Shown here: positions 9,727 to 55,629 of the stretch, piece by piece
Numbering within the stretch: position 1 is the stretch's first letter
How the letters are laid out: every line of letters begins with the position of its first letter
Origin: Proteromonas lacertae
Taxonomy: Eukaryota
Assembly: GCA_002245135.1 (NCBI GenBank)
Contig: NGBS01000003.1
Coordinates: forward strand, 186,001-250,000
Direction of reading: 5' to 3'
DNA length: 64,000 nt
The notes under the pieces: model-generated
What the model saw: only the letters and a program-made list of their open reading frames with translations
Databases searched by the model: none
Told to the model about the DNA's origin: nothing
Translations under genes and position numbers: made by a program

Positions 9727-11553
9727 ATGAATAAATTCACTCTATCAACTAAACATTTATCAGAACTTGACTTTAAAGCTAGAAGAAACAGCATGTTTTT
9801 ACTACATAATGAGTTAGTAGTGTTAGATAATAAATATTTACACAGCAGAATCAGGCTTGAATATGGATGTGAAGTAGATAATGGTAGTAAAGAGAAAATA
9901 GAGAATAGAGCTTCATGCCTACTTGAAAAGTATTTGGTTATGTTAATCTTGTAGAGAATATATAATCACTCATGGAGGTAAAAAGAAAGATGAAACTTCA
10001 AATAAATTAGAAATATATAAATATGACAATGAAAACCAATCATTACACAAATTATTCAAATGTAAGTATGATTTTAAACTCAGTGATCATATATGTAGTG
10101 AAATTGGGAAAAAGTATATTGTCTTTTATGGTGGAATTAATGAAAAAGATGAAATGAATGATGAATTGTTTTTTTTCAACAAAAAGGAATTGATAAGAAT
10201 GGCAGAAAGTAATCATAAAAAAAATAAATATGAAGCTGTTGAAGAAATAGCACTTGAAAAAGAATTTCTACCTCGTCCACTTCCAAGGTTGTACTCAACA
10301 TTAACATATCACAAAGATGAACATACTTGTATATTATATGGAGGAAAATACAACATTAGTGATGATGACGATGATAATGAAAGTAATTTAGTTTTAAATG
10401 ATCTTTGGGTATTATCTTTAGATGATAACAAGGATGCTTGTACTTACAGTTGGTATCAACCAACATTAATATGTGGTCATGTTCCATTTAGAGCTAATCA
10501 CAACTGCGTTGCTATTAAATCAAATACTTTTTTAGTTTTTGGTGGTGTTGATGAAAATGAGGAGATTATGAATGATTTTTTCATTATGGAAACTAAATTC
10601 GAAATGGATTATGATGATGAAATGAATTATAAATTTGAATTTATGTGGTCAAGTCCAATTATGAATTCATCTCCAATGCCCTTAAAAGATGCTTCAGTTT
10701 GTTATGATAAAAAGAATAAGAATATCTTTTTTGTATGTATTATTTATTCTCTTATAGTTCTTTTTTTAACTAAAATGTTTAAGTCTGTATATATTTGGCG
10801 GTAAGAATAATATGGGTAATAGTAAGGATTTATATGAAATTAAAATTGACAATGAAAATTTATTTGATAATAGTTACATTCAAGTTGATAATCACAAAGA
10901 ATTAAAGGATTATCTCAAAAAACTAGATTTAGAATTTTGTTTATCTTTATTTATTGATCAAAATATAACAGTTGAAGATATTTCACATTTTACTATTGAT
11001 GATTTTAGAACACACCATATTAATGAAACAATTGCATCTACATTATTAGGAAAGAAGATAATAAAATCATTTAAAGGAATAATAGATGGTGATGAAACAG
11101 ATGCTATACTTGTAATGATTAAAGAACATTATGATCCTAATAGAATTCAACTAGCCATTAATACTATTCATGAAGCGAATATGACAATTGATAAAGATTC
11201 ATTATATAGAGAATTGAATAATGATAATTTTTCTCATCCTCAAAAATGTATATATTTAAATTTTTGTAATATAAATAGTAAGAGAATTAAGAGCAGTGCT
11301 AGATGGATGTGATGATAAAAAAGATAGGGAAAGAGAAAAAGAAGAAATAAAAAGAAAAAATATTGAAGAAATGAATAGTAAGAAAGAAGCAGATTGTAAT
11401 ATTTGTTATGATAAACATGCAACTCATATGTATAGCGGTTGTGGACATTTATGTATATGTGAAGATTGTTCTGGGGATTATCAAAATAAATGTGTACAAT
11501 GTAATGCACCTGGAATACCAATTAAAGTAAATTTCCCAAATCCACCCAATTAA
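9727..11553 (+). CDS. Kelch-repeat - SAM-like - C-terminal RING finger protein (probable E3 ligase)
   Basis: Kelch GG motifs (THGG, FYGG, LYGG, VFGG, IFGG), SAM-like ELKDYLKKLDLEFCLSLFIDQNIT, RING CNICYD...CGHLCICEDC...CVQC. The model needs an AT-AA intron at 10722-10782. Confidence 0.8.
10722..10782 (+). other. putative U12-type intron, AT-AA ends, 61 nt
   Basis: Starts ATATCTTTT, has branch-like TTTTTTAAC and ends TTTAA. Removal gives KKNK-S-LYIFGG in frame with the downstream ORF. The GT/AG pairs I tested do not restore the frame. Confidence 0.75.
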
Positions 11554-11637
11554 CAATAAAAACAAAATATAAAATCAATTATCTAAACTACTTCATGTAT
11601 TATATTAAAAAAAAGACTGTTTCTTTTGTGTAGATAA

Positions 11638-14388: not shown

Positions 14389-14492
14389 TTTTAAAAAACG
14401 TTAATTTTTGAATTATAAACGACTCTATTTTTATTATTTGTTCAATTTTTATCTCACCAACTAAACAATATTAATAATATTAATTTCATTAT

Positions 14493-16225
14493 TTATATTT
14501 GACCTGATGTTAATGGAGTATATAATCTACTTCTACTTCGTCTATAATATCCTACTCCAATAATTGAAGATACTAAACCAACAGTTAAAACAATAGGCCA
14601 GAACAATGGATTACTAGTAAGTCCACCTTCTTCTGGTTGAACATTAGCTGGTTTAAGATTCTGTGAGTTTGATTTGGTTGTTGTTGGTGGAATAGTTGTT
14701 GGTTCAGGAGTTGTAGGTGAAGCAACAGCAGCAGCAGAAGGAGCAACAGTTATATTAGCATTACCTTCGATAATACGATTCTTTGGACTTGGCTTACCAT
14801 TACATTAAAACTAAATAAAGAAAAACTAAAAACAAATTCACTTATAAAAAATAAAAAAAGGATATATTAGCTTCAACAATACCAATATTATGTTTATTTA
14901 AATTAAATATAAAATCATGATCTCTCATAAAATTATTACCTAATATATTCCTTGACATTGAGTATAATCCCAAACAATATGTTTGAGTATCTCTATCATT
15001 AGGTCTCCACATGTAATTTTTAGCTTTTACTACTAATACAGCACCTCCACTGAATGTGATAGTAATATCTGGGAAAGATGATAAATCTGGGTTTTTAAAA
15101 CAAAAATGTTCACGATTCTTCGAGCCTGTAGTTTGAGTACCAACACATTTTTTGCTATTACAGTAAGAATAGAGGGATGATGAGATTGAATTGATCATTG
15201 AAGATGACATATAGGTTAAACTTGTACCACTATCTACCAATACATGACTATAATAATAATAATAATAAGATTAATTTAAAAAATACGAGAAAGTTCCAGA
15301 TACACTTCTTCCTCCTACACTAATACCACTACCATCTGCATAATAATATGAATCACCTGAATAGGGAGTATATCCAATAGTTCCTTTATGAAATGAAGTT
15401 TCTATACCACCAACAGCAAAATAACCACCAGTTTCAGCAATACAGAGTGAGAATACCGGATTAGGCAATTTATTATGATTTTTTAAATGAAGTAAAAATG
15501 TATTTGCTATAGAATATATGAATAAATTATATACATCTTGGTGATAAACCCAATATACCATCAGCCTCTTGCGTTCTGAATAATTCTAATAAATATAACA
15601 ATCATTAAAAATACTTGTTTCTTTAGAATGACAACCAAAAGGGTATTGAATTGCAAATTCTTTAATATGATCACTTGATTTATCAGGTGTAATACCTTTA
15701 ATTTCAGTATCACCACCAAGGTAGATATAATCATAATAATATATTCCTCTATATGAACTTCCTTCTGTGTATGACTATTAATTATAAATTAGGAATATTA
15801 TACTTGAGACCAGCTACATCCACCATTATTACATGTACTACAACTTACACCATGTGTGTTCGCACAACTTATCTTTTCAGAGGATGAAGAACTTGAAGGA
15901 ACAAAAGGAGAATTTAGATGTTTACCACAATCACATCCTGTGCATGGAACCGACATGATACTACTTCCTGTGTCAACAATAACTGTGAATTTCTGTGGAG
16001 GAGTGCCAATATAAATTGTTGTGTAATAATAACTAAAATGAACATTAGGAATATATTATACCCAATCTTTTGAAAATTTCCCATTAATGGAACTTCTTCC
16101 AATAAATCTCCTAACACTCTCATTGATTTAACTGGTAAGTCAACTCTGTGTAATGGCATTACTATAGTAGAAGTATTACTGCCAAAAACAAACATAATCA
16201 TAAATAAAAAAGCGAAACACTTCAT
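14493..16225 (-). CDS. A1-family aspartic protease, plasmepsin V/ASP5-like (signal peptide, C-terminal TM helix)
   Basis: MKCFAFLF signal peptide, VIVDTGS and VDSGTS catalytic motifs, [20 protein letters not shown], Pro/Thr stalk, TM helix, and a cytosolic tail with YTPL. Confidence 0.85.
14805..14865 (-). other. putative U12-type intron, AT-AA ends, 61 nt
   Basis: On the minus strand it starts ATATCCTTT (canonical U12 donor), has branch-like TTTCTTTAT and ends TTTTAA. Removal restores the IGIVEAN|C motif. The internal AG acceptors lead to stops. Confidence 0.85.
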
Positions 16226-16321
16226 CTTCACTTCAAAAAGCAAAAAATTATTGAGATGAAGCGAAAAAATAACCCCCAAATTTTGGTATAAAATTTGAAT
16301 TTTTCTGTTGATTTCTTTCAA

Positions 16322-18636: not shown

Positions 18637-18779
18637 TCATTTTTTAAAAATCTTATTTTTATCAGTGTTGTATATAACAATCAAACATCAACAGTCCATA
18701 AATAGCTATTATTTTTAAAGATCACATTTATCATACCTAAAAATCTATTTTACTAGTAAATGTTATTAAATACTGAATA

Positions 18780-19068: not shown

Positions 19069-22000
19069 TTAGATAAGAATTATTATCATAATCATTGAAA
19101 TGAATAAAGTGAGTGATAAATCAACAATATTTCCTTCATCCTCTGATTTTTCTGTTGGTTGAATAGTAACACTTGGAGATTCAGTTGTATCTTTAGTAGG
19201 TTCATCTTTAATAGAATTAAAAATATCTTCATATATGTTATTCAATCTGTCATTTAAACTATTCAATAATCTTTGCTTTAATTCATTAAAATCATCTATA
19301 TATGGAAATTTTACAACATTAATCCAATTATGGTAATAACTTTCAAAGGCCATACAATAATCTGCATTAGGAAATGTGAATATACCAGGATTGGTATAGA
19401 AATAGTTATTTTTTAATGTTTCACTTGCATTACCAATCACAATTATTAATCTTTTAACAGTAGAACGAGAATTACTATAATTGATAAATCCAATTAAACC
19501 ATCATTCACCTTTATATAATTTATTACTCCATTAGAATTTCCAACATAAGTTATATTTATTTCATATGATTTATCAGATGGAATTCCTCTTGTATTCTTG
19601 GTAATAAGCAAAACTTCTTCTTCTAACACTGACAAGTCTCTTTCTTCTAATGGAATTATTAAGAATATTTCTTCATTCTTGGTTATATATATATATTTAT
19701 TTTCGATGTTTATTTCGATATTTGTATCAACTAAATCATTTAAATATACATTCATTTCTTCTTTCTTTTCACAATTGTTGAATTCATCTTTAAATGATTT
19801 CTCTGAATTTGGACAATCATCTTCACCACTACATGGTAATTCTATTTCACTTAACTCACAATTAAAATCATAAATATTGAGGTTATTTTTGTTAGTAATA
19901 TCATAAATCAATTTTATTTGATATATATTTTCTCTAATATATCCTCCATTTTTAATGTCATATTGATATATGATAGTAAATCTGTTTGATGTTATGAAAT
20001 ATCCTCGTAATATTTATCTTCATAACTATAATAATTATAATAATATTCATAATAATAACCTTTTTCTTCTTCTTTTCTTAATTGATTTTCTACTTTCTTT
20101 TCTTCTTTTTTAATTGATTTTACTTCACTTTTTGTTGAATTGTCATAAAATTCTTCTAATATTTTTCTTGTCTTATCTATCAATTTAGGAAAGTTTGTTT
20201 TGAATTGTTCCAATACATTTTCAGCTTCTATTAAAATGAATAAATGAAACATATACTTCTAACTTTGTAACATTCATTTAATAGATAGTTGTATTCACCA
20301 TATCCTTCTTTGAAACAAATTCTTGAATCATTCTCTACCAAATGAAAGAAAAACATATCATTCCCATCATATTCTATACTACCTTCATGATTAAAAGTGT
20401 ATTTATAATAATAATAACTTGGTAAAATTTCATCATTTCCTTTATAGTATTCAAAAATTGATGTATTTGTTTGAAGGATATATTCTTTATCACTTTTATG
20501 CCAATTCCACATTTCATATAGTTTTACTGGATATCTTTCTATTAGTGGATGATCTATTTTATAATGAATATCTGCATTACTTATTTCATGTAATTCTTTA
20601 CCTCTATCTTCTGTTCTTCCTTCATAATATAATTTATCATTCTCAATATAACTTGGAATTCTAATGCCTCTCTTTTTATTCTCCAAAATTGTTTCATATT
20701 CATCTGCACATTTCTCTTTTATTGTTTTGTAATTATATTTCCCTAATTCAATTTGACATGTTATCTCATCTCTACTATCAATTGTAATATATGATTTCTC
20801 TTCATCTATATCTCCTAATGTTATTTTTGTTTTATTTCCTTCTTTACTTGATGTATAAGAATATACAATTACATCTCTAGAAAGTAACATCAGAGTAATG
20901 AGATTCAGAAAATAATAATATTTTATCATCTGATATTAAAGTTGATTTACCATCACTAAAACCATTTCCTTTATATAATTCATCATAATTATCTTCAATA
21001 TTATATTCTATCTCTTTATCTTTATTATCATCATCAATACTTAATAATCCAATTATCTTATTATAATTCTCTTCTCTAAATGATCTATATGCTGTTTTTA
21101 CCTTCTCAATAGCAACAGGAAGCATCACTTTCAAAATCATATCCACTCAAATTGAAGAATTCAACTCTTCCAATGAAGTATTTATCATTGATTCCTTCTA
21201 TCATATGAAACTGATCATTTTCATAATTCAATTTTGCTGTATCTTTATCATAATAAAAATGTTTTCCATTAGTAGTAAATATTTCCCATAAATAGACATA
21301 TACTCACCATCATTTGCTGAATTTAAAACTGTTTTATCTTTAGGAATAGATGGAAAGAGAATAGAAATTCTTTGTATGTTTTCATCAAATACATCACAAG
21401 CTGTTCAATAATAACACACAAAATATACTTGCATTTCTAAGATGAACAATGTTATATCCATATTTTTAAACTGTTATCTACTGATGAAAAAGAATAATTA
21501 CCATCGTATATATAATGCTGTATATCATATCTTAATTTTCATTATTATCAATATCACAATTTCCATAATATTCTTCAAATGATAATCTTGATTTGTTATA
21601 TCCAATTTCTATTTCACTTTCTTTACAATTCATTTCTTTCAATGATATATGGTCTATAATAAATAAAGATGAAAATATAGAATACTTGGATCGGTAAATG
21701 GAATGACAATTTTGAATTGTTCTAAACAAATATAACAAGAATTAATTATACCAGTATCATAAATAGATGCAAAATCACCTTGAGGTTGAGGTGATAAATG
21801 GATAACAATAAATGTATTATCTTTTATGAAATATCCTTTATAATCATTGTTGTTGAGGTAATTGTATACAATTTCTTTATAATAACATTCATTATTATTT
21901 ACCAATTCTTTCATTTTCATCATTTCTTTATTATGATCTATTAATTCTCTTGTAGATGATGTGAAATTTGAATCAAAATTATCATCAAAAGATGAAGAAA

Positions 22001-23036
22001 ATTGATCATAAACACTTTTGAACTTTTCTATAACATCAGTTTTACTAACTGTATATTCACATTCATTAAGATAAAAGCCTGTCCATACTGAGTTTATATC
22101 ATAAAGACTATTACTAGATACTATTGTATGACATATTCTTTCATCATCTTTACTTAATTGTGTATATGCTAAATAATATCCAAATTGATTATTATACACC
22201 AACATTTCATCTAAAACTGAATTTTCACTTACTAAATCTAGACTTTCAGTTATACCAAACTTATATATGTCATTATTCATTGATTGTCCCATATATCCAT
22301 ATAAGTGTCTAGTATAAAATGAATAATAACATTGATATCCATAATAAAAATAATTTTCCTTACATTCATAAGAATATAATAATATTTGACTTGGTTTGTA
22401 AAATTTTAATCCAGAATTCATCTTGTATGTAATATCATCAATACCTATAACATAATAGTATAACACTCTATATACTGTATTTATTATAATCATATTCCAT
22501 TGTATTTTCTATACCATTTTTTCATTGTCAAAATATTCTGGAATAATTACAGACGAGATGATAGTATTAAATTTGGATGAAATATATTTACAGCCATAAC
22601 GAATTTCACTAATAATAATATAAATAATAATAATAATATATACTTCATCTTGTATTTTCTTTTTCCAAATATGCAACCTTCATATCTACTTAATTCACCT
22701 ACAGAATCTTCATCAAACTCAATATAGGAATTTTCTTCATCTAAGGAATATTTTGTAATACTCAATGTTATAGGAGTTGATATAATAGTAATTGAATAGT
22801 ACAATTTTAACACAAAGTAAATAGATATTCATAAGACTTGTGATAACGCATAGCATAGTACTATTCAATAAATAAACAAAATTATTATCATAATGAGATG
22901 AATCACGATAAACAACTCCATACTTCTCTAAATCTATCAAAACTTTCTCAGATTTCACACTTTCTAACTTATACTCTCCACAATGACAACTATCAATCAG
23001 GATAAACCACACAATTAACACCATTACAAACTTCAT
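19069..23036 (-). pseudogene. large Tyr/Asn-rich surface or membrane protein gene with an internal duplication, interrupted by at least 6 frameshifts
   Basis: N-terminal signal peptide (MKFVMVLIVWFILIDSCHC), Ser/Thr stalk and C-terminal hydrophobic tail. GT-AG introns are intact. Indels occur near 22515, 21535, 21465, 21120, 20880 and 20010. It may be an intact gene with assembly errors. Confidence 0.55.
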
Positions 23037-32971: not shown

Positions 32972-33005
<34 letters not shown>

Positions 33006-34626: not shown

Positions 34627-37600
34627 TTAACTATTTATATTGAAGTATTCTTCAGATAATTCTTTCTTTTCTTCTTCTGAAATTCCATCTAAATTAATTC
34701 TTCCAATTGATGAAAATGTTTCTAGAAATGATTTTAATTCTATTTTATTTATATTTTCTTTTACTGTTATTGATAATTCTTCTATACAATCAAATACTTC
34801 TTTGTTTTCTTTCATTAATCTTAATTCTTCTTCATTTAATACATTTCCTAAAAGATTTATCACATTTAATATATAAAAGTCTTTTAACCTTTCTATTAAC
34901 ATTTTTAATCCTTTTTCATTCATTCCTATATCTATTCATATGATATATTTATATTATATTTATATAAATACTTGATAGATTTAATAATAATGGATCATTA
35001 ATAAATTTATCAAAATATTTACATATAATCTCTATCCCTTCATCTCCAATAGGATTATTATATATTGCTATATAATATACTGTTTCTGGTAATTTATGGG
35101 TCAATTCTGTTAATCCTATACAAGTAATTCTATTGTTTGATAAATCAATAAAGTCCAAAACAATCTTTTTAATTAATGAAATATGACAATCATTAATATC
35201 TAAATCTATATAATTAAATAATACATTTTATACTGGATAAATCGATGATGTCTTTCTGTCTTACTTCTTTAACATAATAGTTCAAGTAATATCCTATTTC
35301 TTCATTTGTCCATGATGAATTTTTCATTCTAATTAACATATATCTATCATTCTCTAACGATTTTGAACAAATTGATATTAACCCTTTCTTTCTAATGTTA
35401 TTTCCTTTTAGATTTATAATACACGATTGTATATCAGAATCTAGTTTACTTGACAATATTAACACACTTTCATCATCAATTGAAATATTACTCAAATTCA
35501 TAATGAAATTACAATCTATTAACATGTTCAAATAGTGTAACAGTAGTTTAAATCCACTATAACCAATTGGATTGCCTATAAAATAAAAATGAAGTTTATA
35601 AACTATATATACTGTGAATAGACAGTCTCTCAATATTATCACTTTCTTTCATGTAATTCATTAAATATTCAATTCCATTTGAATCAATATTATTACGACT
35701 TACATTAAGTCTGATCTTTATATGAATATTCTTCAATCCATCTAATAAGTATATTAATCCAATCGAAGATAATCCAATTTCTATTGAATATTGAAAATTA
35801 CTTTTTTATACTTGAACAATTAATTCTATTATAATAATAATCGTAATGCTTTAACAAATGTAAATGTGGTGATAATAATTTCATTCCTTCATCTCCTATT
35901 TCATTTCCATTTACATGAAGTTTTCTAAGTTTTGGAAATAAAGATAAATTGTGTATCAGACATTCTATACTTCTGAATGTCAGCTTATTATCTAAACAAT
36001 AGATAAATATCAAATAATACTACTTAAATCAAAACTAACAATTTTAACAAATTCATTTGATCTTAATTGAATAAATGATCTGAAAATATCATCATTAATT
36101 TCCATATTACTCAGATTTAACTCGAAATGATTTTTTATATATCTGATCAAATCTGGTATATCTTTATCAACTAATAACTTTATATTTCCATTATAATCAA
36201 ATTCTATTTTTGATATAGGAAATTTGGAGAATAAAGCTTTCAACCCTTTGGAATAAATACTTTTATTTGATTTTATATCTATTTTCTGAAGATTTGAATA
36301 TTTACATAGTTCTTCTGATAATAATATCATTGATTCATCGTTCAAATTCATTCCATGAAGATCTAAAATGTTATTTTTGTTAATTAATAAATGTAAATAT
36401 GGAAGTAACAATTTGAAGCCTTTTGGACCAATTGGATTATCTATTATATTATTATATACAAGTTAAATATTGAATACATGAAAGCGAAATATGTTCTATT
36501 CTCATCAATGGAATTGATTTAACAAATGATTCAATGAACTGATCAGTTAGAAAGCAGTTTGATATATCTAACACTTGTAAGTTTGATAATCGCGAAAAGT
36601 ATGATCCAAATAAAGATTGAAGTTTGATAAAAATTTGAATATCTACATTATAATTAACTTCAAGTAATACCAAAATTGAGTATTGAATGATTCATAAATT
36701 TCAATACTCTGAAGAAATAATCTATTCCTTTCTCACAGAAACAAATACAATCTGAACCAATCCATAATTCATCATTATTATCATCTTCGTCATTACTTAT
36801 ATTAAAAATAATTTCGTCTAAAAAGCATTTTCTATATTTACAGTGATGATAAATATGATATTTTATTCTATCCTTTATTGAATTATCTATTTTGTATAAT
36901 TTCATCATCAATAGTATTGACAGCATTTTTGTATTTGATCTATAATTGTATACATCTATCTGTGCGTCTCTATATTCTATCCATATATATATATATATAT
37001 ATAATATAATCACTATACTTTCCCATTCACTACTTTTGATATAATCATCTGGTGAATGAAATGAAGCAACAGCTTCCCAATCACTTTTGAAAAACATATA
37101 TTTTTTTCTTCAAATACTGTCAAATTATTCTTTACAGGTGAAATTTTTATCATTTCCTTTTTCAACTCTTTCAAACTCATTCTATCTTCATAATTCACTT
37201 TTAACATTTTTTCAATAATTTCTTTTATTGAAACATCTTGCATTAATTCTTTATTGTATTTACATCTCATGATATTATTCATAGTCTTATATATATTATC
37301 ATCTTCATTGAATGGTACATCTATATTAACTATTTCAAATAATAAACAACCAATTGACCAAATTACACTTCTATCATTACATTCTAAGCCATTTAACTCT
37401 TCTGGACTTTTAATGGATATATCTCTGATTCTCATTTCTTCTTCTCTTCTCACATTATTTAAATATAAATCACATATCTTTATATTATCAAATCTAAAAA
37501 CATCTCCTTCAAATAATACATTAGAACTCCTTATATCATATACTACTAAATTATATTCATTTAATAACATTAAAACATCACAAATTGAATTTATTACACT

Positions 37601-40547: not shown

Positions 40548-43500
40548 ATGAAACCTTCAGAGATTGAACTGAAAGAGATTTCAATCGAGGAACCAAAGCA
40601 GGAGATACCAGTTTGCAAAACATCGTTTGAATCTGCTAATCAAGCACTTGATCATGGATATGATTACTATGCGAAACAAATCAAATCAATTCTTCCAGAC
40701 CTTCCACCTGTTGATATATCTCTAAAAAGTGTATATTATACCACAAAGGTCCCAAATGAAGAATCTACACATGAAGTGATCAACATAGTGTCGGGATTCT
40801 ATAATCAATTAAGACATATTGTTCCAATTGGGTTATATACCAAAGAGAAGATTTTGCAGAATATCACATTTAGATTCAAACCTGGAACATCCACCTTAGT
40901 AATGGGTCCTCCATCCTGTGGAAGTTCTACAGTATTAAAGATGATTGCAGGATTATTACCAAAGAGTGATATTAAAGGTTCAATTACTTGTAATGATAAA
41001 CCACTGGATAGTTTTAATTGGAAAAGATATTCAAGTTTCTGTGGACAATTAGATATTCATTTACCTTTATTAACTGTCAAGGAAACATTCGATTTCGCTG
41101 TGGCTTGTTTAAATGGTAAAGGAGAGATGAAAAGTAAAGGTCATTCAATGATAGAAGATGATATTAACCTCAGAACTGATTTATTCCTCACATTATTAGG
41201 TTTAAAGAACTGTGAACATACAATCGTTGGAGATGCAGTTCATCGTGGTTGCAGTGGTGGTGAAATGAAGAGAGTATCTGTTGGTGAATCTTTATTAGGT
41301 CCAAGTCGAGTATTATTATTAGATAAAATCAGTACTGGTTTAGATAGTGCAGTAACATTTGATATTTGTAAATTCTTAAACCAATGGACAAAAATATTTG
41401 AAGGAATCTTAGTATGTCACTTGTTACAACCAGATCCTGAGGTAATTGCATTATTTGATAATATGATAATATTGAGTGAAGGCCAAATTATCTATGCTGG
41501 TCCATGTGATGGAATATTACCACATTTTGATTCAATTGGATATCATATGATCGAAGGAAAAGATTTAGGTGCATTTATCTGTGAAGTTGGCAAAGAAGAA
41601 ACAAGAGAAGTTTATAGAAAAGATGATACAATTCCAGTAACAACTCAATATTTAGTAGAGAAATATGAAATGAGTGAATTAAAGACAAAAAATTTGGATA
41701 GTGTAAATGAAAAAGTTGAAAAAACTGAAGTTCCAAAGAATGATTATAATGAAGCAATGTTCAATACAGCTCATCCAATGAAATTTTGGCATGAATTATT
41801 CTATTTAATTAGAAGACAAGTAACAATCACTTTACAAGATAAACTATTCATTCGTGGAAGAATTATTCAACAAATTGTAATGGGATTGTTATTTGGAACT
41901 GTTTATTTCCAAATAGATAGACATAATTTCATTGCTAGAACTGGTTCAATTGTTGCTACTGTGATGGCATTGGTGAATACTTCATTATCATTGGTTGTTG
42001 GTATATTTAGACAGAAACCTGTCTTGTATAAGCAAGTGCAAAGAGGATATTTTTCTGTTCCTTCATATGTGTTAAGTGTAATAGTAAATCAAATCCCTTT
42101 GCAACTATTTGAAGTGTTTATATTTGGTTCGTTGATCTATTTTATGAGTGGTTATTCATTAGCTGATAATGGAGTTCATTATTTTATCTTCATAGCTTAT
42201 GAACTGTTGGGTTATATGGCTTTTACTTCATTTCAATTGATTATGATGTATTTGTATGGAAAATTAGCTATTTTAGCTGCCTTTCTACCAATTGTAGGTT
42301 TTTTTTTGAATGCATTTAATGGATTTAATATTACAAAGAATTCTATACCCAAATGGTTAATAGAATTCTATTATTTCAGTCCAATGAGTTATATGATAAA
42401 AGGTATTGCAGTAAATGAGTTTACTAGTAGTGAATATACTCCAGAAGAAGCTGTAAATTATCTAAAAGTATTTGATTTCCCAACTAATAAGAATGATCAA
42501 TGGCAGTACTTTTTAATATTAATTTGTGAGAATATCATATTTGTATTATTACAAATGGTTGTATTGCATTATATTATATATGATCCATTTCCACCAAGTG
42601 AAACTGTTGATATGAAAGATGTAAAAGCTGTTGATATGACAAGACAAAGTGAAATGAGTGCAAGATCTTCAGCTTCAGAAGTTAATTTCAATACAGTTGA
42701 TTTCTCATTTGAACATGTAAAATATTCTGTTAAAATAAAAGATCCAGTAACAAAAAAGAAAGTGGATAAAGTATTATTGAATGATGTAAGTGGTTATGTT
42801 AGAAGCCACAGTATAACAGCATTAATGGGAGCAAGTGGTGCTGGTAAAACTACGTTATTGGATGTATTAGCAAATAGAAAAACACAAGGTAAAATAGAAG
42901 GTGAGTTTTTAATAAATGGTAAACCATATAAAATGAAAGATTTGTGTGTGTTAAGTGGATATGTTGAACAACAAGATACATTACCAGAAACTGAGACAGT
43001 CAAAGAAGCATTGATGTTTAGTGCAAGGTTAAGATATCCAGGACATCCAAATGATTCAACAATTAAAAATTTTGTAAAACAGGTAATAGAGTTATTAGAA
43101 TTAAAAGATTATAAGAATATGGCAATAGGAAGTGTAGATGATGGTTTACCAATGGGTATAAGAAAATTAGTGATGGTTGGAATAGAATTAGTTGCAGATC
43201 CATCAATATTATTCTTAGATGAACCAACAACTGGATTAGATAGTTCAGCTGCTTTATTAGTATGTCAAGTCTTACAAAGAATCGCAGCAAGTGGCCGAAG
43301 TATAATTTGTACAATCCATCAACCATCTTATGAAATATTCAAGTTATTTACTGATGTATTGTTATTAGAAAGAGGCGGAAAAGTAGTTTATTTTGGTGAA
43401 TTAGGTGAAAATGGCAGTAAAGTAGTAGAATATATGGAAAGTATAGATGGAGTAACACCAATTGAAAAAGGTCAAAATCCAGCTAGTTGGATGTTAGATG

Positions 43501-44509
43501 TAACTGGAGCTGGAACAGGAAATACAAAAAATGTGAAATTTGGTGATTATTATTTGACAACTGATTTATATCAAAATGTAGAAAACACATTAGCTGCAAT
43601 TAAATCTTCCAATAGAAAAGTAATTCATTTCAAAGATGCATATTCCTCAACCATTACAAGACAAATATGGGAAGTGACAAAGAAACAATTTCGTTTCTCC
43701 TGGAGATTATTGGAATATAATTTAGCACGTTACAGAGTTTCATTATTTATGAGTTTAGCAATGGGAATATTATATTTCCAAACACCAATGAAAACAACAG
43801 GTAATTTACAAAGTCGTTTTGCTTGTTTGTGTGTTTATGTAATGACTATTTTTATGAATACATGTATAAGTATCGTTCCAGTGTTAATTGATAGAAGATT
43901 GGTGTTTTATCGTGAAGATGCAATGAGAACTTATCATCCAATTGCTCAATTGATTGGTTTAATATCAGCTGAATTAGTGTTTTCCTTCTTTTTAGCTTGG
44001 TGTTATATGTTATTTTACTATCCAATGGCTGGGTTAAGAAGTGAAGCATCAAGAGTTTTCAAACATTACTTTATGAATTATACATTCATTATATTAGCAG
44101 TTGTATTAGGTCAATTCTTTTCTTATTTGTTTCCTATTATTCAGATTGCTTCTATTTGTATTATTTGTGGTTTAAGTTTATTCAGTACTTCTGCTGGTTT
44201 TACTATTCCTTATCCATCCTTAAAAGCACCTTGGAAATGGATTTATTGGATTAATCCAGTTGCTTTTGGTATTCAGACTGTAGTAGGAAATCAATTTGAG
44301 TGTGCAATAAAATACCAGTAAATACTACCAACTGTCCATCAATAATGGTGTTGGGAAATCTTACAACAATTCACGATTATTATGCTAATACTTATGGTAT
44401 CAAGTATGATATGTTTTGGACATATATTGGTTATTTGTGGATTGAAATAGCAGTTGCTTTGTGTTTGTTGTTTGTTGGAATTTCAAAGATAAGATATTTA
44501 GATCGTTAA
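40548..44509 (+). CDS. PDR-type full-size ABCG transporter (NBD-TMD x2), intronless, frameshift near 44308
   Basis: GCSGGEMKRVS, LDKISTGLDS, TALMGASGAGKTTLLDVLA, FLDEPTTGLDS, CTIHQPS and two TMDs. The last helix is in the ORF 44300-44509. Confidence 0.92.
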
Positions 44510-44675: not shown

Positions 44676-45777
44676 ATGTCTATGCCATATACTTTCTTAG
44701 GAAACACAGGTCTAAAAGTATCTAGACTTGGATATGGTGCTTTTGGATCTTTTGGATTAAAGACAGACGAAGAGTTGTCTTATCAGTTAATGAAAAAGGC
44801 ATTTGACAGTGGTATTAACTTATTTGACAATGCTGAAATATATGGAGATGGAGAAGCCGAAATCATGATGGGTAAAGTTATAAAAAGACTAAATGTGAGA
44901 AGAAGTGCTCTCGTAATAGTAACAAAGATATTTTGGGGACCTAAGCTGGGAGGTCGTAAAGTATATTGCAATGATTTTGGTTTATCAAGAAAACACATAA
45001 TTGAAGGATTGAAAGATTGTTTAGGAAGATTACAGTTGGATTATGTTGATGTTGTAATTGCTCATCGTCCTGATATAAGAACTCCAATGGAAGAAACAGT
45101 AAGAGCTTTTAACTTTGTGATTAGTCAAGGAATGGCTTTGTATTGGGGAACAAGTGAATGGTCAGCTGAACAAATCAGAGAAGCAAATATATCTTTTATT
45201 TATATAAAAATATTGTGTTTTGTTTTCCTTTATTAGTCATTTTACGAGATTGCAAAAAGATTAGGATTAGTTGGTCCAATTGGTGATGAATGTCTTTACA
45301 ATTGCATTAGTAGAGCCAGATTTGAAGGTGAATATGATAGATTATTCAAAGAAACTAAAATGGGTTCAATTACTTTTTCACCTTTAGCTTATGGTTTGTT
45401 AACTGGTAAATATGCGAATGGAATACCTGCTGATAGTAGATTAAGTATAAAAGAAGGTCAGCATAGGAACTGCAAATGAAGGTGTTATTAAAGGAAGATT
45501 TGGATCAATGGAATATATAAATGATGTTTGTAGTAAATTAAAAGTGATTGCTGATAGATTAGGATGTACTTTACCTCAGCTATGCTTAGCATGGGTATTG
45601 AAGAATGACAATGTTAGTGTAATGTTACTTGGAGCTTCAAAATTATCACAATTGGAAGAAAACATAAAGTGTTTGGAAGTATTACCCAAATTGACTGATG
45701 AAGTAATGAATGAATTAGAAAAAATATTGAATAATAAACCAGCTCCAGCTCCTGATTGTAGAACTTGGAATAATTAA
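44676..45777 (+). CDS. aldo-keto reductase, Kv-beta (KCNAB/AKR6)-like
   Basis: [62 protein letters not shown]. One AT-AC intron and one probable 22-nt GT-AG intron (45445-45466). Confidence 0.92.
45189..45245 (+). other. U12-type AT-AC intron, 57 nt
   Basis: ATATCTTTT...TTTTCCTTTATTAGTCATTTTAC. Removal gives [18 protein letters not shown], the conserved Kv-beta segment. Confidence 0.9.
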
Positions 45778-45917: not shown

Positions 45918-47403
45918 ATGCGTTGGATATGTATATATATCATATTACTAATTCTTTTAGCAATATTTGCAATTTCTATCTTCATAAGCATCAGTTTTGT
46001 GTCAGCAAAGGAATACGATCCTGATTTTGAGTATGAAATAGTTGTAAAAGCTGAAGGAAGTCTTGGATTGGAATTAGAAAAAGGTATAAAATGTAAATAA
46101 TGTATAAATAGATCCAGAAGATCAACAATATTTGAGAGTGTCAAAAATCCATAAGGGAGGATATATTGATCAATCTAAATATGTTGATGTAGCTGATAGA
46201 TTGATAAGTTTAAATGATAAGCCTATATTAAACATGTCAATGAAGTATAATTATACATTTTTATATATAATATATTATATTACAATCAATAGTTCATTTG
46301 TTGATATGTATATTGAAGAAGAATTCCCCAAAACATTGAAGTTTTTACCCATAGAACCATGGAACAGAAAAGATCCAGAAGCAATGAAGCAACATTATGC
46401 TCCACCACCACCTAAACTAGTCAATGAAGGTGTAGCCTATCTTAATATACAAGGCCCCTTTGTATTTGAGAATTCTTACCAACTACAACAAGGAGAAATA
46501 GGTAAATTAGAGTATGATCGAGATGTTGATATTGAATTTGTAGCAATCAACACATTAGGATGTGATCCAGTAGCCAATGACACTTATAAGAATAAATATG
46601 TAATATTATGGAGAGGAGATTGTAATTTCTTTGAAAAGGCGACAATAATTCAGAATGGTGGAGGTATTGGAATGATAGTTGTTGATAATTCAATAGAAAA
46701 AGTAATTCCAAGAATAAAAGGAGTAGATGATGAAAGATTTGTATTTCATATACCATTTTTCATGACTGATTGGTTTAACGGTCATACATTAATGCAAGCT
46801 GGTGTAGTGAGTGGTGGTTTAACTGGTCAAATATCATTTACACGAAAAGAAGTGAAAGTTGAAGAAGAAGTTGCTGCTTCTGATAGTGGTGCTAATACAG
46901 GAAAAGCAGCTAAATCAGGAAAGAAAAGATATAATCGTAAAGCATTATTGAATAAAGGAGCAGTTGATATTACTGTTGTAGGAGAATATCTTTTTTTAAT
47001 ACTTTTTATTTAATAATTTCTTTAATTAAATTGTAGAAATGGATATAACAAAGTAATTTCAAGTAAGAAAGCACTTTATGGTCCAAAACCAAGTGGTCCA
47101 GGATATATGTTAGTTCCTGCTGGCAATATGTGTAAAGGATTTACTGCAGATATAAGAGGAAGTTGGGCTATAACAGATACAACTCAATGTAGTTATGAAG
47201 AGAAAACAAGAAATGGACAAAAAGGAGGTGCTAGAGGTGTTATTGTAGTTAGTGACGATGAAAATGTTATTCAATTACCTGCTGTTAATGCTGATGGAAT
47301 TGAAATTCCTACTTTGATGATTAGTAAAAGTGATGGTGAAGAGTTGATTCAACAATTTACATCTGGGAATACTATTTTTGGAAGAATGAAGTCTATCAGT
47401 TAA
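45918..47403 (+). CDS. secreted or membrane-anchored PDZ-like plus two protease-associated (PA) domain protein
   Basis: Hydrophobic N-terminus. PDZ-like GSLGLEL...RVSKIHKGG...DRLISLND. PA1 GCDP...ILWRGDCNFFEKATIIQNGGGIGMIVVDN. PA2 CSYEEKTRNGQKGGARGVIVV...IPTLMISKSDGEEL. Confidence 0.75.
46986..47036 (+). other. putative U12-type intron, AT-AG ends, 51 nt
   Basis: ATATCTTTT...TTTCTTTAATTAAATTGTAG. The phase-2 join GA|A restores the frame into the PA2 exon. No phase-compatible GT donor is nearby. Confidence 0.75.
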
Positions 47404-47500
47404 TTAATTAAATGATATTATTATTGGATTATGTTATTTTTAATTCTTTTGTTGTTTCTCTATTCAAAAAATAAATCCGTTTTAGTATTTTTCAAAAAGG

Positions 47501-47805: not shown

Positions 47806-47925
47806 TTTTACTATAACTGTTTATTATTCTAATTATTAATGTTTTGTTTGAATATAAAACCAGCAAAACAATATTTACATACTATTAAAAATATTTATAT
47901 ATTACTATAATTAAAAATCAAAATT

Positions 47926-48832
47926 CTACTCCATATAAAAAGAAAAAACAGAATTGAATAAATTCACAACATTTACATCACTTGAAGACTTAATAACATT
48001 CAAATGATCACTATACAAATTTACTAAATCCCTGATATTTAATCCCTCCAATAACTTAATACATTCTATTAATAACAACATAATTTGATTATCATAATCA
48101 ACTAAAGATAAACAGTCAAAAAAAAGTTCTATAAAACAATGACTGCTTATCATGTCAATAAATAACTCTGAATATTGAGATTTCAATAAAACAATTAATA
48201 TTTTCATCACCTCAACATTCTGATGAAGTTGATATGAGGTATATAAAACATGTAAAATATGTTCATCAAAAAAATAGACTGCATTAGAATCTTTCTCTAT
48301 TATATACAGCCACACTTGTAAACTGTTAGATACTACTATTTTACTCCAAATATGCAAATGATCAAAAATATCTACAAACCCTTTTCTTATAATTTTGCTA
48401 TAATCCATATATTCAAATATATGAGCTAAGAAATAGTAATAATTATTAATATACGATAATTTTCTAAGGCAGATAATATAAGAGAAAATGCCTTTTGTAG
48501 ATGATTTTGGTCTTCTAGTGAAGAAATCGTTTTAAAAACATAATTATCACATCTAATTTTTGCTAATTCTTGACAGTTCTCAGTAGAGCTATGAAGCTTC
48601 AAAAATGTACCAAGAAAATCACTATATTCTTCTGCTTCAAGAGCATTATTCCAAGACCAAAAAAAGAAAGGCATTTCAGCAATTGAAACAATTTCTGTGA
48701 ATTTATAAGCGAAAAAAACATACCATCTAAAGATGATTTTGAATCTTCATCGAAAATACTCTCATACAGTCTCTTTGGCATTATTTCATCTTTTGAATTA
48801 ATAATCCTGTAACTTTTATCATGATTTATCAT
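47926..48832 (-). CDS. hypothetical helical-repeat (ARM-like) protein, start uncertain
   Basis: Three ORF pieces are joined in frame by two GT-AG introns. The product is Leu/Ile-rich and helical. Confidence 0.5.
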
Positions 48833-49148
48833 GATTTAATCAGAGAAACTTGTGTTTCTACTATTTGTAACGGACATATTTGCATTAGCTGAAATAAAAT
48901 TAACCAGAAAGATTCTGAAGTAGATATTTAAAATCTATTTGATTATTTGTAATTTTGATCTGAATAATGATATATTTTCTTATGCTCCAATGAAATACCT
49001 GAAATTTTTTTCTTCCTTTCAGTTCATTTATGGTCGTTAATTGATCATTAGGACACTCTCTGATCATCGATAAGCTCTCTCTGTCTTCAGAAACAACTAC
49101 TCAAACAATGTCAAGCTTATGAAATATATTCGTTACACTTTATAAAAA

Positions 49149-49910
49149 ATGAGCAGAAGAAGAGCAATCGTCTTGATTAGTAAATCGTTTGTTAAAGATA
49201 TTAAACGAGAGTATTTGTTTTTATCAAGCTAAATAGAAAATTCTCTACTCCAAGTGAATCTTCAGCTGTTTGTGAATGTTTTGATCCAAAAGGAAACTCC
49301 AAACTTGGATTCAATATTGGAGTTGAATTTGTTAATCCTGGAGATGAATTGTTGGGAGAAGTATATTTTCACTTATTTGTTAGTATATTATGTATTCTGG
49401 AAGGCAAGTGATAAAGAATAAAGATTTTTATATATCATGGCTCACTCTAAGAATTATATATTACCTTATTTGCACATTGAATGTTTTTTCTTCAATATGT
49501 TTGTTATGTTTCAAGTATTATATATATATATACTATCTAATATGTTATATATTTATTAGATATACACATTCAAATATAACTGAACCATCACATATTAATA
49601 GGATTTGTTGTTCAGTAATTCCATGTTTTATTATTTTAGTTGAATCAATATTACTTTATTTACAGAAATTCAAATGCTTTGGAGTTTCTATCTTTTTGCA
49701 TATTATATTTACATTCATTTCAACATTTTATATGCCTTCAGGGTTTTATTTGGTAAGAATATTCTTGGATTTGTTGAGTTTTATTGTTGTGTTTTTTATG
49801 AAAGATTATTTTGTATATTCATGTAATATTATTCAATAGATCCCAATGACAATGCTTGTTCCTCGTGATAGCGCTGGACCACAATCTCTTCTGGAGATAA
49901 TAGATGTATA
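49149..49910 (+). CDS. hypothetical multi-pass membrane protein
   Basis: Several hydrophobic helices on short exons, ending ...DYF|IPMTMLVPRDSAGPQSLLEIIDV*. Confidence 0.5.
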
Positions 49911-49919
49911 ATAAGAATT

Positions 49920-51358
49920 TATGTAATTTTTTTAATATATATTGAATTATATATATTGTGAGAGGGGAATGAATAATATAAAACGTTCTATATCTGAATC
50001 GTGAAATAATTAAATTAACAAAAAACGAAACGGATCTGATAAAATAACTATTCATTGGAACACTGTAATAATCACTGTCAAATTTTAAATCAGAAACTGG
50101 TTTATACAATGTTTTAGCTTGATAAAATGGAATTGATTCTTCTTTATCACCATTTGGTTTTATCCATTTCAGTTTTAATCTATAACTGGAGGAATTGTAT
50201 TTTTCTGAACATATTGTATCATTGTCATTATCTGTATAACATTCTTTTTGTTTTTTACTGTAAAATCCTCTCATCTCAAAATCATGATAGCCTGATGCTA
50301 TTATCATCTTATTTGAAGATTCTGAATATTCCCATAAACTACAAAATCCATAATAATCATTATTGTCTTTTGTATAATTGAATTTTGTAGAGTTAAATAC
50401 ATTTATTTCATCAATGTACACTTTATAGAATGAATAATCAGAATCACTCACAAATGTATATTCACCCTCATTTTCCACATATATTAATCCTTTTATAGTG
50501 AAATTCCAATATTCAATGTGATTTGTTGATAAATAATACTTCAATTTTTCATCCCAAATTACATAAGTATTATCACCATTTAAAGCATTAATATTATCTA
50601 TTATTGCATTTAAACTACTATAAACTGTTGTAATTTTATCATAACCACAATTAAATTCATTCACACCATTGTCTATTTCCACATTCAATCCAGGTTTATA
50701 TTCAAATGGAATTTTGGATATTATTATATCTGTTGTTATTCCACTTTCATTTGAAGGATTTTTGGCTTTGATTGTTATTCTATTAATATATTATATCATT
50801 TTATAAAATACATTAATCTATCGATTGGAGAATAGTTATTGAATGATAGTATTCCATCTTCAGATATTGAAATATTCGTAATTTCCTTCTGGTTGGAAAG
50901 ATATTGACCAATTCTCTATTTTTCTATCACATTTACATTCAAATGAATCTGTCAAATTGTCAATTATATTTAATTCACTAATTCCGACAAGATAATGCAG
51001 TTGGTACATCCCAAACTATAATTAATTATGAAATCTATACTCTTTATATCCAACATAGAATTAAGTATAGCTTTCATCAGTTTTTTTTAACGTCACAGTA
51101 TATGTTTGTTGATTTTCTTCTTCAGGTGTACCTGTAATTCTTCCATTTAGTGGATCAAGTGATAAGCCTTTGATTAAACTAGGTTTAACCATAAATACAC
51201 CTCCATTAGATCTGATATTTGGAGTATTGGAGATTATTATTTCATCCTACAACATAATTTGGATTTTGATTTGAATAATCAAACTCATTTTCTGCAAACA
51301 CATACAGAATAAATAGCACTATTTATAACTTATATTATCAAATACTAAAAACAAACAT
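49920..51358 (-). pseudogene. disrupted He_PIG (putative Ig) plus PA14-like surface protein gene
   Basis: Signal peptide MFVF|MLFILYVFA, He_PIG PSLIKGLSLDPLNGRITGTP, PA14-like KGLIYVENEGEYTF...LKLKWIKPNG. Frameshifts near 51245 and 50885 and an in-frame TAA at 51061-51063. The 3' end is uncertain. Confidence 0.65.
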
Positions 51359-51530
51359 TTTGTTTATAAATTTGACTAGATATGATCACTATAGTGAAAT
51401 AACTGAACGTTTATTTTGAAACGATTTAATTTTTATAAATTAAGAAAAGACAATAATAATTAAATATATCTTTACATATAAATAAATATATAGTTTTAAA
51501 TAAAACACGTTTATTATTATCCTTATTAAA

Positions 51531-54500
51531 TTAATCACTATCATCATCATTATAATTATTAATTCTAGCATTTGTCCAAGCAGTAGCTTCAGTATACCTC
51601 GTAATAATTGGATATTGTGTAACAATCGTCGATGAAACATGATTCAATAAAAACCTAATCATTATAATATCACCAATAAAATTCTTTGGAACTGATGATA
51701 AAAAGAAATAATAAATAGTTGTCTGTATAATAAATAACACAACAAAATAAGCTGAGACAATTATAATCAACGTCTCTAATGAACTGAACATAATATCATC
51801 AGTTAAACTAATGATCTCCAATAATTGTTTATGTAAATTCCTATTTGTGATTAAATCCTTAAACATCAAATAAGTTGGATGATTAAACGACAATTTTGTT
51901 CTCTCTTCATTATATATAGAAAAACTGATTCTATAATACTCATTAATAGTAGAATCTAGTGATCTCTGGTAATAATTATCAGTAAAGTATGAAAAATATG
52001 ATTGTTTAAATATATCACTTGGTAAATCATATAAGTCTTGATATTCAATATCACCATTATCACAATGCCAAGAGGAACAAGATTGATAATACATCAAATT
52101 ATTTAACTCACTTTCCAACATTTTATGATATTTATTATATTTTGTTATGTCATCACTGTGTTTTATTGTTTCTTGTATTACATATTCTATTTTATTAATT
52201 GACATCATTCTATATCCCTTATATAACAAAGCACCTACTAACTGTTTTTCATCTTGTAACATAAAAATGAATAGCAATAACAATGCAATTCCTAGTATAA
52301 ATTCAACAAATAAAATCCAATAAATATTATGTGTTTTCTTTTTCAAAGTTTTACATTTATATGATTCTTGAGTAAAGAATTTAATCTTTTCTTCTACTAC
52401 AAGAGGGTTGGAAGGATTATTCTCTAAAGTCCATACTTCCTCTGTTCTTGATTTATATTTCTCTTTTTCCATTTCTTCACAATAAGAAGAAGAAGCAACA
52501 TTATTTCTTTTATTTAATAAATATTCAAAACTTTCTGTTAATCTTTCACATTCATAATCAGGTATCATTTTGATTATATCAAATCCTATATGTTGTTCTA
52601 AATGTCCCAATCTAATTTTATTTCTAAACAAAAACACTGAAACAATCAAAAATACTGATTTCATTACAACATAGATAATAATCACATATAAAATAACATC
52701 TAATCGATGAACAACATTATCATAACTTTCCTTTAATACTGGAAAATAAGAATCAGGAATTTCAACAGTATTATATAATACATTATTTTCTTCTTCTTTA
52801 ACTAATGCTTTTGAGATTATTGAAGTATCTTGTTTATTATATTCAGTCAAAATTGTATGTACTGAATTAATCAATCTAGATCTTGCATCAGTTAAATATA
52901 CTTCTTCCATATATTCTCTACCATTAATTAACCATTTCGTTATACTCAATTTCTTTCTATCACCTAAATGAGCTAATCTACAAGTACCACTGATGATTAT
53001 ATTATCTGAAGGACATCTTAATAATGGATAATATATAGATTTTAAATGAACTAAGTCATCTGACATTAAATTAAGCCAATAATTAACATGTCCTGGATCA
53101 GAAGAGATTGTGATTTGATAAACATCTATCAAGTTCTGATATAGGAAATATGGAGTTAATAAAATTGAATGATAATATTTCACAAAGTACCAAAAGTAAA
53201 CAATCAATAAAATACATACAATCCCACTGATTACAGTAAATATAATAGCTTCAATGATATAATAATATAATGTAAATTTCTCCAAGTATTGCAAACCCAT
53301 TCCATTGTCAAAACTTACTTTATTCTTATCATCTTTCATTGCTATTGTCTTTTTCATTTGTGTTTTTTTATTGGCTAATAAATTCTCCCTCACTCTATCC
53401 AATGAATTCTTCATTTTTAGATCCTTTGTAATAGAATTATCACTACCAACGGATAGATTTGTAACAGATGCATTATTATTAACGAAACTATCTTCATCCT
53501 CTCTAGCACTATCCATTACTTCATCATCATCATCACTTAATCTATTCTCCCTATTATTCATAAATATATCAGGATTTTCTATCTCGTCAGCCCAATCATA
53601 TAATTCATCTGCTTTTACTAAATCATCTCGAACATATTGCATGTAATTACCATATCCTCTTAACACTTCAGCATGGCCTGGAAACTTTGTCATTAATGTA
53701 TGGTAGGAGTTATTGACTTTGGCATCAACATCACGGATTTGACCAAATATATTTTGCATTCTGACAGCTATTATATGATTTGGTAGCGTTTTTGTCATTG
53801 ACATGTTTCTCCAGAATGTAAATAATAATGTAATTAACTTCTAATAAAATAATAATTATAATAATAATTATATATATATATATATATATACTTCATGTTG
53901 TTTTTGTGATTGATTGAATGCTCTCTTATATTCCACTTCTTTGTAATTGTCTATATTCTTAGTTGGATTGTTATTTTTGTTCTTATTGTTAGTTTCATAT
54001 AATTCATTTGTTTCATTGATGCTTTGTTTTTCTTCTAATAACAATAATGAATGGTACAATAAATATTTCAAGTCATAGGGTGATATATCAGGTATTTTCA
54101 TAACTATAGTTTCTAACTCCTGATTATAAATAATGGAATAATTCAAAAAATATGCCCAAAATGAAGATTCAGTTGAATATTTACCTATATTACCTTTAAA
54201 CACCATATATGCAGTATGGTAAAATTCATTATCAGGCTTTTGCACCATTTCTGCAGCAATACTAATAGCAAAAAACAAATCATAAGGTGAATGTGTTTGT
54301 TTAATATAACCAGGAAATGTTTCAGATGGATTAGATATTCCTTTTGTTGTTTTAATGGCAAAATCACTATTGGCATGACTGAGTAGATTTTCTGTTTCAT
54401 TTTTCTTTGATCCTGATGATAATAATACATTTTGAAATTTTTCTGAATTAAATATTCTCTTTTTATAAAATTCTATAATATTAATAATAATAATAATATA

Positions 54501-55629
54501 TATATATATACTGAATAAATAATTAATTCCAATAACTCCTGGAATTATTGACACAATGAATATTATTGTAGTTGCTAACTCTGGCACTCCCCATACTCTT
54601 AAACAATCAAATATTATACCAGCACTTGGAATATATTGACTTATTAACATCTAATATATATATATAAATATGATTAAAATTGTTAATACTTTTCGATTAT
54701 TTTTAATTTCATAATAAGGCATATAAAACCATATTCTATACACTGAATATAATATAAAACATAATCTCACTACTGTGGTTATATTTGACGATATTAATAA
54801 TGCATTCCAAGTACAAGTTACATATAGAAATATGTTATATATTTTTATATAGAATAATTGTCTTCCATTGATTACTCGTGAATTATGGTGTAATAATAAT
54901 AAATATGAATGAGTAAATATAAAGAATGCAATGATAAATAGTGTAATTATACCAAATATAGAATGTGCAGCTGTAGATGTCTAATTAATTAAAAACAATT
55001 ATTAATACATACATTATAACACTGTATTTTCCCTTCTACTCGTGAGATATAAATACCATTAGAATTTTTAGAGCAAAATATATAAGTACCAACAGAATTT
55101 ATTGAAGGTATGTACAAATACACTGTAAATATACTTAAAAATCCTCTTAATATCTTAATATGCAGTGAATTGAATGGTTTCTTATAATAGGCAGTAAGGC
55201 ATACATAAAAAAACAACATTGCTGCTAAAATATGAATTACAACAATGATCCAGAATGCCGCTTCATAACTTCGGAATATGAACCAAACAGTGTCTGCGAA
55301 AAATGATGTTATTTTTGATATATATTCTCCAACCACAGAATAATCTTCAGGTTTAAAAAAGGCACAATGCGTTAGGAGTAAATAATATTAAGAAATTTAA
55401 TCGCATGATTATTTTAAATAAATGATATTTAATCCTGTCCATAAGAAATACAGATAAGAATTACTTTCAAAAGGAAGCGGCTTTCCTGTTAAAGCATATA
55501 CAACTATGAAGTATGTAGTCTCTATTTTTGTTAAAGCGATCTTCTGTTTTATTCTTCTTAGTGAATTCGCTTTGGATTTAGAATGATTTGGGCTTCTAGG
55601 TAAAATAATAAAATAAAATACCTGGCCAT
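51531..55629 (-). CDS. TmcB/TmcC (tiny macrocysts)-like multi-pass membrane protein
   Basis: N-terminal multi-TM region, TPR-like YHTLMTKFPGHAEVLRGYGNYMQYVRDD, paired TM helices flanking extracellular domains, DIIKMIP and IRFLLNHV motifs. Contains an AT-AC intron. Confidence 0.65.
55378..55428 (-). other. U12-type AT-AC intron, 51 nt
   Basis: Minus strand ATATCATTT...TTTCTTAATATTATTTAC. The phase-1 join A|TC gives WTGL-I-LTHCAFF and removes an in-frame stop. Confidence 0.8.

Follow-up and report, generated by a model that had tools for sequence, protein, structure and literature searches.

Five short inserts in a 64-kb window of Proteromonas lacertae DNA (64,000 nucleotides (nt); contig NGBS01000003.1, positions 186,001 to 250,000 of the forward strand) begin with AT and interrupt predicted coding frames, and they raise the question of whether they are introns of the minor (U12-type) spliceosome and, if so, whether they are old or newly gained. 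They are located in genes predicted to encode a kelch-repeat and SAM protein, an A1 aspartic protease, a Kv-beta-type aldo-keto reductase (AKR), a protein with two PA domains and a TmcB-like membrane protein, and are referred to below by these hosts (Table 1). Four of the inserts occur at the same codon in related protists and are therefore likely to be old, real minor introns. As a set, the five are likely old U12-type introns that a Blastocystis-type minor spliceosome would remove, as judged from their donors, branch boxes and homologous positions.

The window has ordinary stop codons, a GC content of 22–30% and intron lengths that peak near 28–32 nt. The kelch, AKR and PA inserts start with ATATCTTT, the protease insert with ATATCCTT and the TmcB-like insert with ATATCATT, while their last two bases are AA (kelch and protease), AC (AKR and TmcB-like) or AG (PA). 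Their A+T content (85–90%) is similar to that of the major introns, and removal of each leaves an open frame. The major class comprises 104 GTAT..AG introns of 23–77 nt (median 32), three of which are at least 51 nt long, and the inserts (51–61 nt) are longer than most of this class, as a first-pass annotation of the window had stated.

A codon and splice-site model was trained on the window and applied to 24 gene spans, in which it could call major introns, minor-type introns or frameshifts. It returned 108 major and six minor-type introns, along with 11 frame breaks for which it placed no intron. Five of the six are the inserts, whose starts and boundaries, already proposed in the first-pass annotation, were found in the sequence and recovered identically by this two-class model; the score rose by 11.5, 15.8, 32.7 (for a span that holds two of the introns) and 16.7. 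The sixth candidate (22828–22777, minus strand; start ATATCTAT) was rejected: it gained 1.8 over a plain frameshift, has no good branch box and is surrounded by further breaks in that region of the gene. A first rough model had proposed candidates at 36861, 50904 and 27241, all of which were gone in the trained one. The sole GT-starting intron with a minor-like donor, a 24-nt GTATCTTT intron at 1084–1107 (plus strand), has no branch box and was scored as major.

Each insert had been said to restore a broken frame exactly. The open frame was recovered in all five, whereas the frame sets the length of an insert only modulo 3 and admits several in-frame 3′ ends, so that the exact ends rest on homology. 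Frame rescue alone is also weak evidence in this assembly, since 11 frame breaks have no intron solution (12970, 20012, 20882, 21114, 22517, 27427, 34194, 37102, 45465, 50865 and 58296; several in base runs or repeats). These breaks, densest at 19069–23024 on the minus strand, are assembly indels or decaying genes.

Compared with RTATCCTT, one of the 5′ splice sites is exact, three have C-to-T at position +6 and one has A at +6. Near the 3′ end, all five introns carry a TCCTTAAC-like branch site, the likely branch A lying 10–13 nt from the intron end. The kelch box is all T before AAC, and the kelch intron likewise departs from the strict TC(C)TT(T)A pattern. Among 90 clear GTA..AG introns, one has a TC(C)TT(T)A box 9–15 nt from its end; major donors are almost invariably GTAT, and major introns end in AG (93% in TAG). 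The donor and branch patterns as a pair, in a form that leaves out the ATATCATT intron, matched the window seven times against 1.15 expected, and none of 100 shuffles reached seven. Within sense-strand gene spans the pair matches exactly the five introns; 29 permuted donors gave a mean of 0.38 matches (maximum 2), and the antisense strand gave three. These tests are somewhat generous, as the patterns were written after the introns had been seen. The sharing of an ATATC[C/T/A]TT start and a box near the 3′ end, as first described, is nevertheless beyond chance.

The evidence from relatives consists of translations, namely public gene calls on Logan contigs. Such calls run into introns, so intron starts are recorded in read-through proteins. 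A comparison of intron positions in orthologues, which had been proposed as a check, placed the insert at the same codon in all four genes tested, in relatives at 39–87% identity that show an ATATC-type start. Out-of-frame members of a protein cluster were also combined (two-frame decoding) to recover the intron DNA of relatives. Decoded introns are about 46–62 nt long, and TTCTTTAA[C/T] branch boxes were decoded in two relatives. Within a cluster, the inserts of different members differ in length by amounts that do not preserve the frame, as expected of non-coding DNA (or of homopolymer assembly error).

In the AKR gene, the tblastn alignment has a gap of 19 codons where the insert lies. Of the 119 homologues with a WGTSEW motif, 116 have a spacing of 28, which is also the spacing after removal of 57 nt. 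Proteins P0001 (87%), P0002 (71%) and P0123 read through I-S-F, the translated ATATC donor, at the insert codon. Decoding places A or C immediately before the exon in P0123, while P0003, of the same cluster, stops earlier and is uninformative. A GC-AG alternative to the insert is found at 45183–45236. The second break in this gene corresponds either to a 22-nt GT-AG intron of unusual composition (45445–45466, plus strand) or to a one-base indel.

The 150 matches to the protease comprise 53 without the motif, 84 with a Cys, nine that differ otherwise and four that read through as x-I-S-F (85, 70, 53 and 39% identity). Only an AA end keeps the Cys found in 84 of the 97 motif-bearing homologues. 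A quick tree of the window protein and its top 60 matches (61 rows) places the four read-through proteins together with the window protein in a single branch of six rows (SH-aLRT 95), of which the remaining row ends before the site; the read-through set may include paralogues. Two proteins, P0155 and P0174, seem to contain extra read-through major introns in a protease exon that is uninterrupted in the window, with the position of the minor intron retained.

For the PA gene, all 16 relative proteins (15 of the P0121 cluster and P0122, at 84–85%) read Y-P, which corresponds to an ATATCC donor. Two members in different frames gave a unique decoding, with a TTCTTTAAT box, a TAC end and the same 11-nt spacing as in the window; the intron would thus be AT-AC in the relative and AT-AG in the window. 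An alternative AA end for the window intron lies at 47039. Because AG and AC differ between orthologues, a relaxed last base, as originally suggested, is supported by the decoded sequences.

The 14 listed kelch proteins (the window protein and P0138–P0150, the latter being 12 members of the P0138 cluster and P0139, at 50%) all read N-I-F at the insert codon. The donor T at +6 is common to the kelch gene and its kelch relatives, so this drift is old. Two-frame decoding of a relative yielded the branch TTCTTTAAC and an AA end, and after splicing the blade spacing (Y to first G = 11) is the same as in an internal blade of the protein itself. With the end placed at the AC of 10770, the protein would gain four residues (three in the relative) and this spacing would be lost. 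Within the AT-AA intron, a 25-nt GTAT..TAG stretch (10733–10757, plus strand) resembles a perfect major intron, although removing it by itself runs into a stop; the resemblance could be fortuitous, or the stretch could be a cryptic site or a nested intron.

The TmcB-like insert has no GT/GC-AG solution shorter than 120 nt, and an in-frame AA end at 55372 is also possible. The exons that flank it match no Pfam family at the curated cut-off. Searches of wider collections gave no further loci: a degenerate AKR-plus-donor pattern found none in the JGI metagenomes, and an alignment of the PA gene confirmed none of 594 candidates in metagenomes and none of 204 in GTDB.

Several points count against five genuine minor introns. 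The assembly contains the 11 unexplained frame breaks listed above, and the branch component of the gene model was fixed after the candidates had been seen. Two-frame decoding gave no solution for four of six cluster pairs. In the kelch intron, the AC at 10770 is an in-frame alternative with a weaker upstream box, and a 73-nt GT-AG alternative (10733–10805) exists, which removes the LYIFGG motif. The fifth, TmcB-like intron has a mismatch at +6, and the case for it is drawn from the DNA sequence by itself; it is still probably a real minor-type intron.

If the five are U12-type introns, established minor-spliceosome biology suggests how they would be spliced. The donor ATATC(C/T/A)TT would pair first with U11 and later with U6atac, and the T(C/T)(C/T)TT(A/T)A(C/T) box would pair with U12. 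Distance from the branch A would be the main determinant of the 3′ cut, which would fall at an A-N dinucleotide 10–13 nt past it and leave the last base nearly free. Genome-wide AT pressure may have replaced C by T at position +6 of the donor and within the branch box. Such C-to-T changes would retain pairing as G-U wobbles, so compensating changes in the small nuclear RNAs (snRNAs) are possible and not required, whereas the A at +6 of the fifth intron would be a true mismatch. The extra length over major introns likely reflects the room needed by the U11/U12 particle. An Rfam scan of the 64-kb window gave no matches at gathering and one chance-level snoRNA (E 0.54), a result that says nothing about the rest of the genome.

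The strongest competitor is a minor system under active expansion, with recently created introns as in Physarum, which remains improbable. Minor introns make up 5 of 109 in the window (4.6%; 95% interval 1.5–10.4%, in one window selected for the trait), compared with 0.94% in Blastocystis ST1 (binomial P = 0.004; per-kilobase Poisson P 0.012). ST1 itself contains comparable stretches: 0.8% of 10,009 sliding 109-intron stretches hold five (from three table stretches, with rows assumed to be in genome order). Since about 0.8% of ST1 stretches reach five and the window was picked for density, the expansion claimed in the first-pass annotation is suggestive only, and a higher genome-wide density is plausible. 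The accompanying claim of recent gains is contradicted. All four testable introns are common to relatives, down to 39% identity, so none is recent, and the Physarum pattern of mostly recent, unshared introns is not seen. By inspection, no internal sequence is common to the five inserts (no repeat search was run). The description of several host genes as lineage-specific was overstated, as all five match Pfam families, though the kelch and PA genes had two word-search matches each. In the protease family, the read-through signature occurs in a single branch and in none of 84 other homologues, which allows an older gain in the ancestor of the clade. A bacterial origin of the AKR gene would have dated a gain, and was rejected on a tree of 54 rows (from the top 120 matches, P0123 and the window protein, with near-identical rows thinned). 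The five focal rows form one branch (100/100), outside a 46-row branch with named bacteria; the gene is not nested among bacterial sequences and therefore yields no dated gain after transfer.

A broader proposal is that a low-GC, Blastocystis-like lineage has about 4–5% minor introns, several-fold above ST1 and above the densities quoted for animals, plants and fungi. All would start with AT and leave the last base free, altered U11, U6atac and U12 would match their AT-drifted signals, and many would have been created in the clade ancestor. This proposal is tentative and rather unlikely; if true, it would be the second large-scale creation of minor introns after Physarum, hidden from GT-AG-only annotation.

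Less probable still than active expansion is that the major spliceosome, or a hybrid that has come to accept AT starts, removes the inserts as real introns, their U12-like signals being relics of a lost minor system. The major donor GTAT is one base from ATAT, and U2-type AT-AC introns exist in animals (PMC1557818). However, at 50% protein divergence the ATATC start and branch box persist in an insert that has otherwise changed, the length classes are separate, and major introns end in AG and lack the box (1 of 90), whereas four of the five candidates end in AA or AC. That ordinary GT/GC-AG splicing combined with assembly errors or pseudogenisation produced the AT starts by chance is very unlikely: the 11 frame breaks and the open-frame GT/GC-AG alternatives at all five sites favour it, but these alternatives remove or add residues at conserved places (the LYIFGG motif, the terminal Cys and the spacing of 28 residues in the AKR) or are at least 90 nt long with poor donors, three inserts are in frame with one to three stops, which no single indel explains, and the inserts recur at the same codons in independent assemblies of relatives.

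Old U12-type introns of the Blastocystis kind are thus the preferred reading; the features concerned are collected in Table 1.

Table 1. Minor-type introns, likely branch boxes and host genes in the 64-kb window.
Feature	Position	Strand	Details
AT-AA minor-type intron, kelch + SAM gene	10722..10782	+	61 nt, phase 1
AT-AA minor-type intron, last intron of A1 aspartic protease gene	14805..14865	-	61 nt, phase 0
AT-AC minor-type intron, Kv-beta-type AKR gene	45189..45245	+	57 nt, phase 0, 1 in-frame stop
AT-AG minor-type intron, two-PA-domain gene	46986..47036	+	51 nt, phase 2, 3 in-frame stops
Probable AT-AC minor-type intron, TmcB-like membrane-protein gene	55378..55428	-	51 nt, phase 1, 3 in-frame stops, start ATATCATT
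Likely branch box TTTTTAAC (kelch)	10763..10770	+	Branch A 10769, 13 nt from end; function predicted
Likely branch box TTCTTTAT (protease)	14815..14822	-	Branch A 14816, 11 nt from end; function predicted
Likely branch box TCCTTTAT (AKR)	45226..45233	+	Branch A 45232, 13 nt from end; function predicted
Likely branch box TCTTTAAT (PA)	47019..47026	+	Branch A 47025, 11 nt from end; same box decoded in relative
Likely branch box TTCTTAAT (TmcB-like)	55387..55394	-	Branch A 55388, 10 nt from end; function predicted
Host gene, kelch-repeat + SAM protein (predicted model)	9793..11553	+	Pfam match, gene model
Host gene, A1 aspartic protease (predicted model)	14493..16159	-	Pfam match, gene model
Host gene, aldo-keto reductase, Kv-beta family	44682..45777	+	Pfam match, gene model; second frame break near 45465
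Host gene, protein with two PA domains (predicted model)	45918..47403	+	Pfam match, gene model
Host gene, TmcB-like membrane protein (predicted model)	51531..55629	-	Pfam match, gene model

Elsewhere in the window, an ABCG/PDR-type transporter gene of 1,258 codons (40548–44321, plus strand) is intronless, while the rest of the window is intron-rich. A gene at 57171–59377 (plus strand) has a weak putative Ig-domain match (He_PIG, E 0.004) and no Atlas match, and a broken gene of similar look is found at 49819–51350 (minus strand).

Annotation that admits only GT-AG introns would truncate or mis-splice about one in six of the genes here (5 of roughly 32 modelled), and read-through entries among public proteins show that relatives are already misannotated in this way. 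With the window, an AT-only minor system whose last base is free would be known from a second genome, one rich in AT, in which the signals drift in step with base composition. The AC/AG switch between PA orthologues at constant branch spacing offers a natural test of distance-based 3′ site choice. Larue and Roy (PMC10639083) call for more comparative genomics in the clade to separate retention from gain and describe de novo creation of minor introns as otherwise almost undocumented. A genome-wide count of minor introns here would address that question.

Non-canonical minor introns have been described in several groups. In Physarum polycephalum, non-canonical ends are reported to be led by AT-AG (29%) and AT-AA (27%) (bioRxiv 10.1101/2020.10.12.336362). 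Physarum and the window share RTATCYTT donors and AT-AG and AT-AA ends, and the Physarum branch A is narrowly placed 9–12 nt from the end. However, the more than 20,000 introns of Physarum are mostly gained, with many GT-AG among them and a proposed transposon origin, whereas the tested introns of the window are old and all five start with AT. Physarum also has a TTTGA branch with a co-evolved U12, in contrast to the near-standard branch box of the window. In animals and plants, non-canonical U12-type introns have the same AT-AG and AT-AA ends and the same type of switch between orthologues, including single-base changes such as AT-AC to AT-AG between human and mouse (Sheth et al. 2006, PMC1557818, Table 3). 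AT-AA is given as the commonest non-canonical minor end in these two groups (PMC10639083). AT-AG and AT-AA account for approximately 1–5% of their mostly GT-AG minor introns (PMC1557818), compared with three of five in the window.

The closest known system is that of Blastocystis ST1, for which 346 U12-type introns among 35,412, all four minor snRNAs and seven minor-specific proteins have been reported, the text describing the introns as “typically AT-AC” (Gentekaki et al. 2017, PMC5608401). A later survey lists 253 minor introns in ST1, 77% of them AT-AC, with a mean length of 42 bp (Larue and Roy 2023, PMC10639083), and a share of 0.29% is given for B. hominis (PMC11347168). Reported GC contents are 21.5–23.1% for low-GC tortoise isolates and 27.0% for Proteromonas (Lind et al. 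2025, PMC12129017), and the word “minor” is absent from the main text of that paper. The literature searched, which left out most subscription papers, yielded no report of minor introns from any low-GC member of the group. The RNA-seq-curated ST1 intron sheet (36,254 rows; PMC5608401, S11 Data) contains 336 ATATCC, three ATATCT and no ATATCA or ATATCG starts. In a sample of 90 of the 336 ATATCC introns (places 1–30, 151–180 and 307–336, read by eye), 55 end in AC, 31 in AG, two in AA and two in AT. AT-AG introns are thus about one third of those sampled, a proportion not stated in the Introns section of the paper. The sampled introns are mostly 37–44 nt long, compared with 30 for major introns, while the 25 ST1 introns that start with GTATCCTT are all 29–33 nt, the size of major introns.

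The window and ST1 therefore have in common (essentially) exclusive AT starts, a free last base, a length above that of a very short major class and a branch box of the CTT-N-A-Y type; two of the five window introns are in phase 0, and 49% is reported for ST1. The motif TGTTTGTT, known from Blastocystis 3′ ends, is not significantly enriched in the window (10 occurrences against 5.76 expected; 7 of 100 shuffles); it was observed approximately 30 nt past the genomic stop codons of two genes (56954, plus strand; 63365, minus strand). Together with the short introns, the low GC content and the AT-only minor class, this weak signal is indirect evidence that the organism is probably a low-GC gut stramenopile resembling Blastocystis; the matches to the window proteins included no named eukaryotic homologue. 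AT-only starts, non-AC ends (35 of the 90 sampled) and extra length, which had been presented as novel, are already in the published ST1 table and are not new. The differences are in degree. Donor +6 is T or A in four of five window introns, in support of the AT drift proposed earlier, against 3 of 339 in ST1, and the branch-box C is often replaced by T, unlike in ST1. The window introns are longer (51–61 nt, against mostly 37–44), their branch A is farther from the end (10–13 nt, against about 6–8 by eye), AA ends are found in two of five, against 2 of 90 sampled, and the local density is 4.6%, against 0.94%. The window introns are a drifted variant of a known system, in which the drifted signals and possibly a higher density are what is new.

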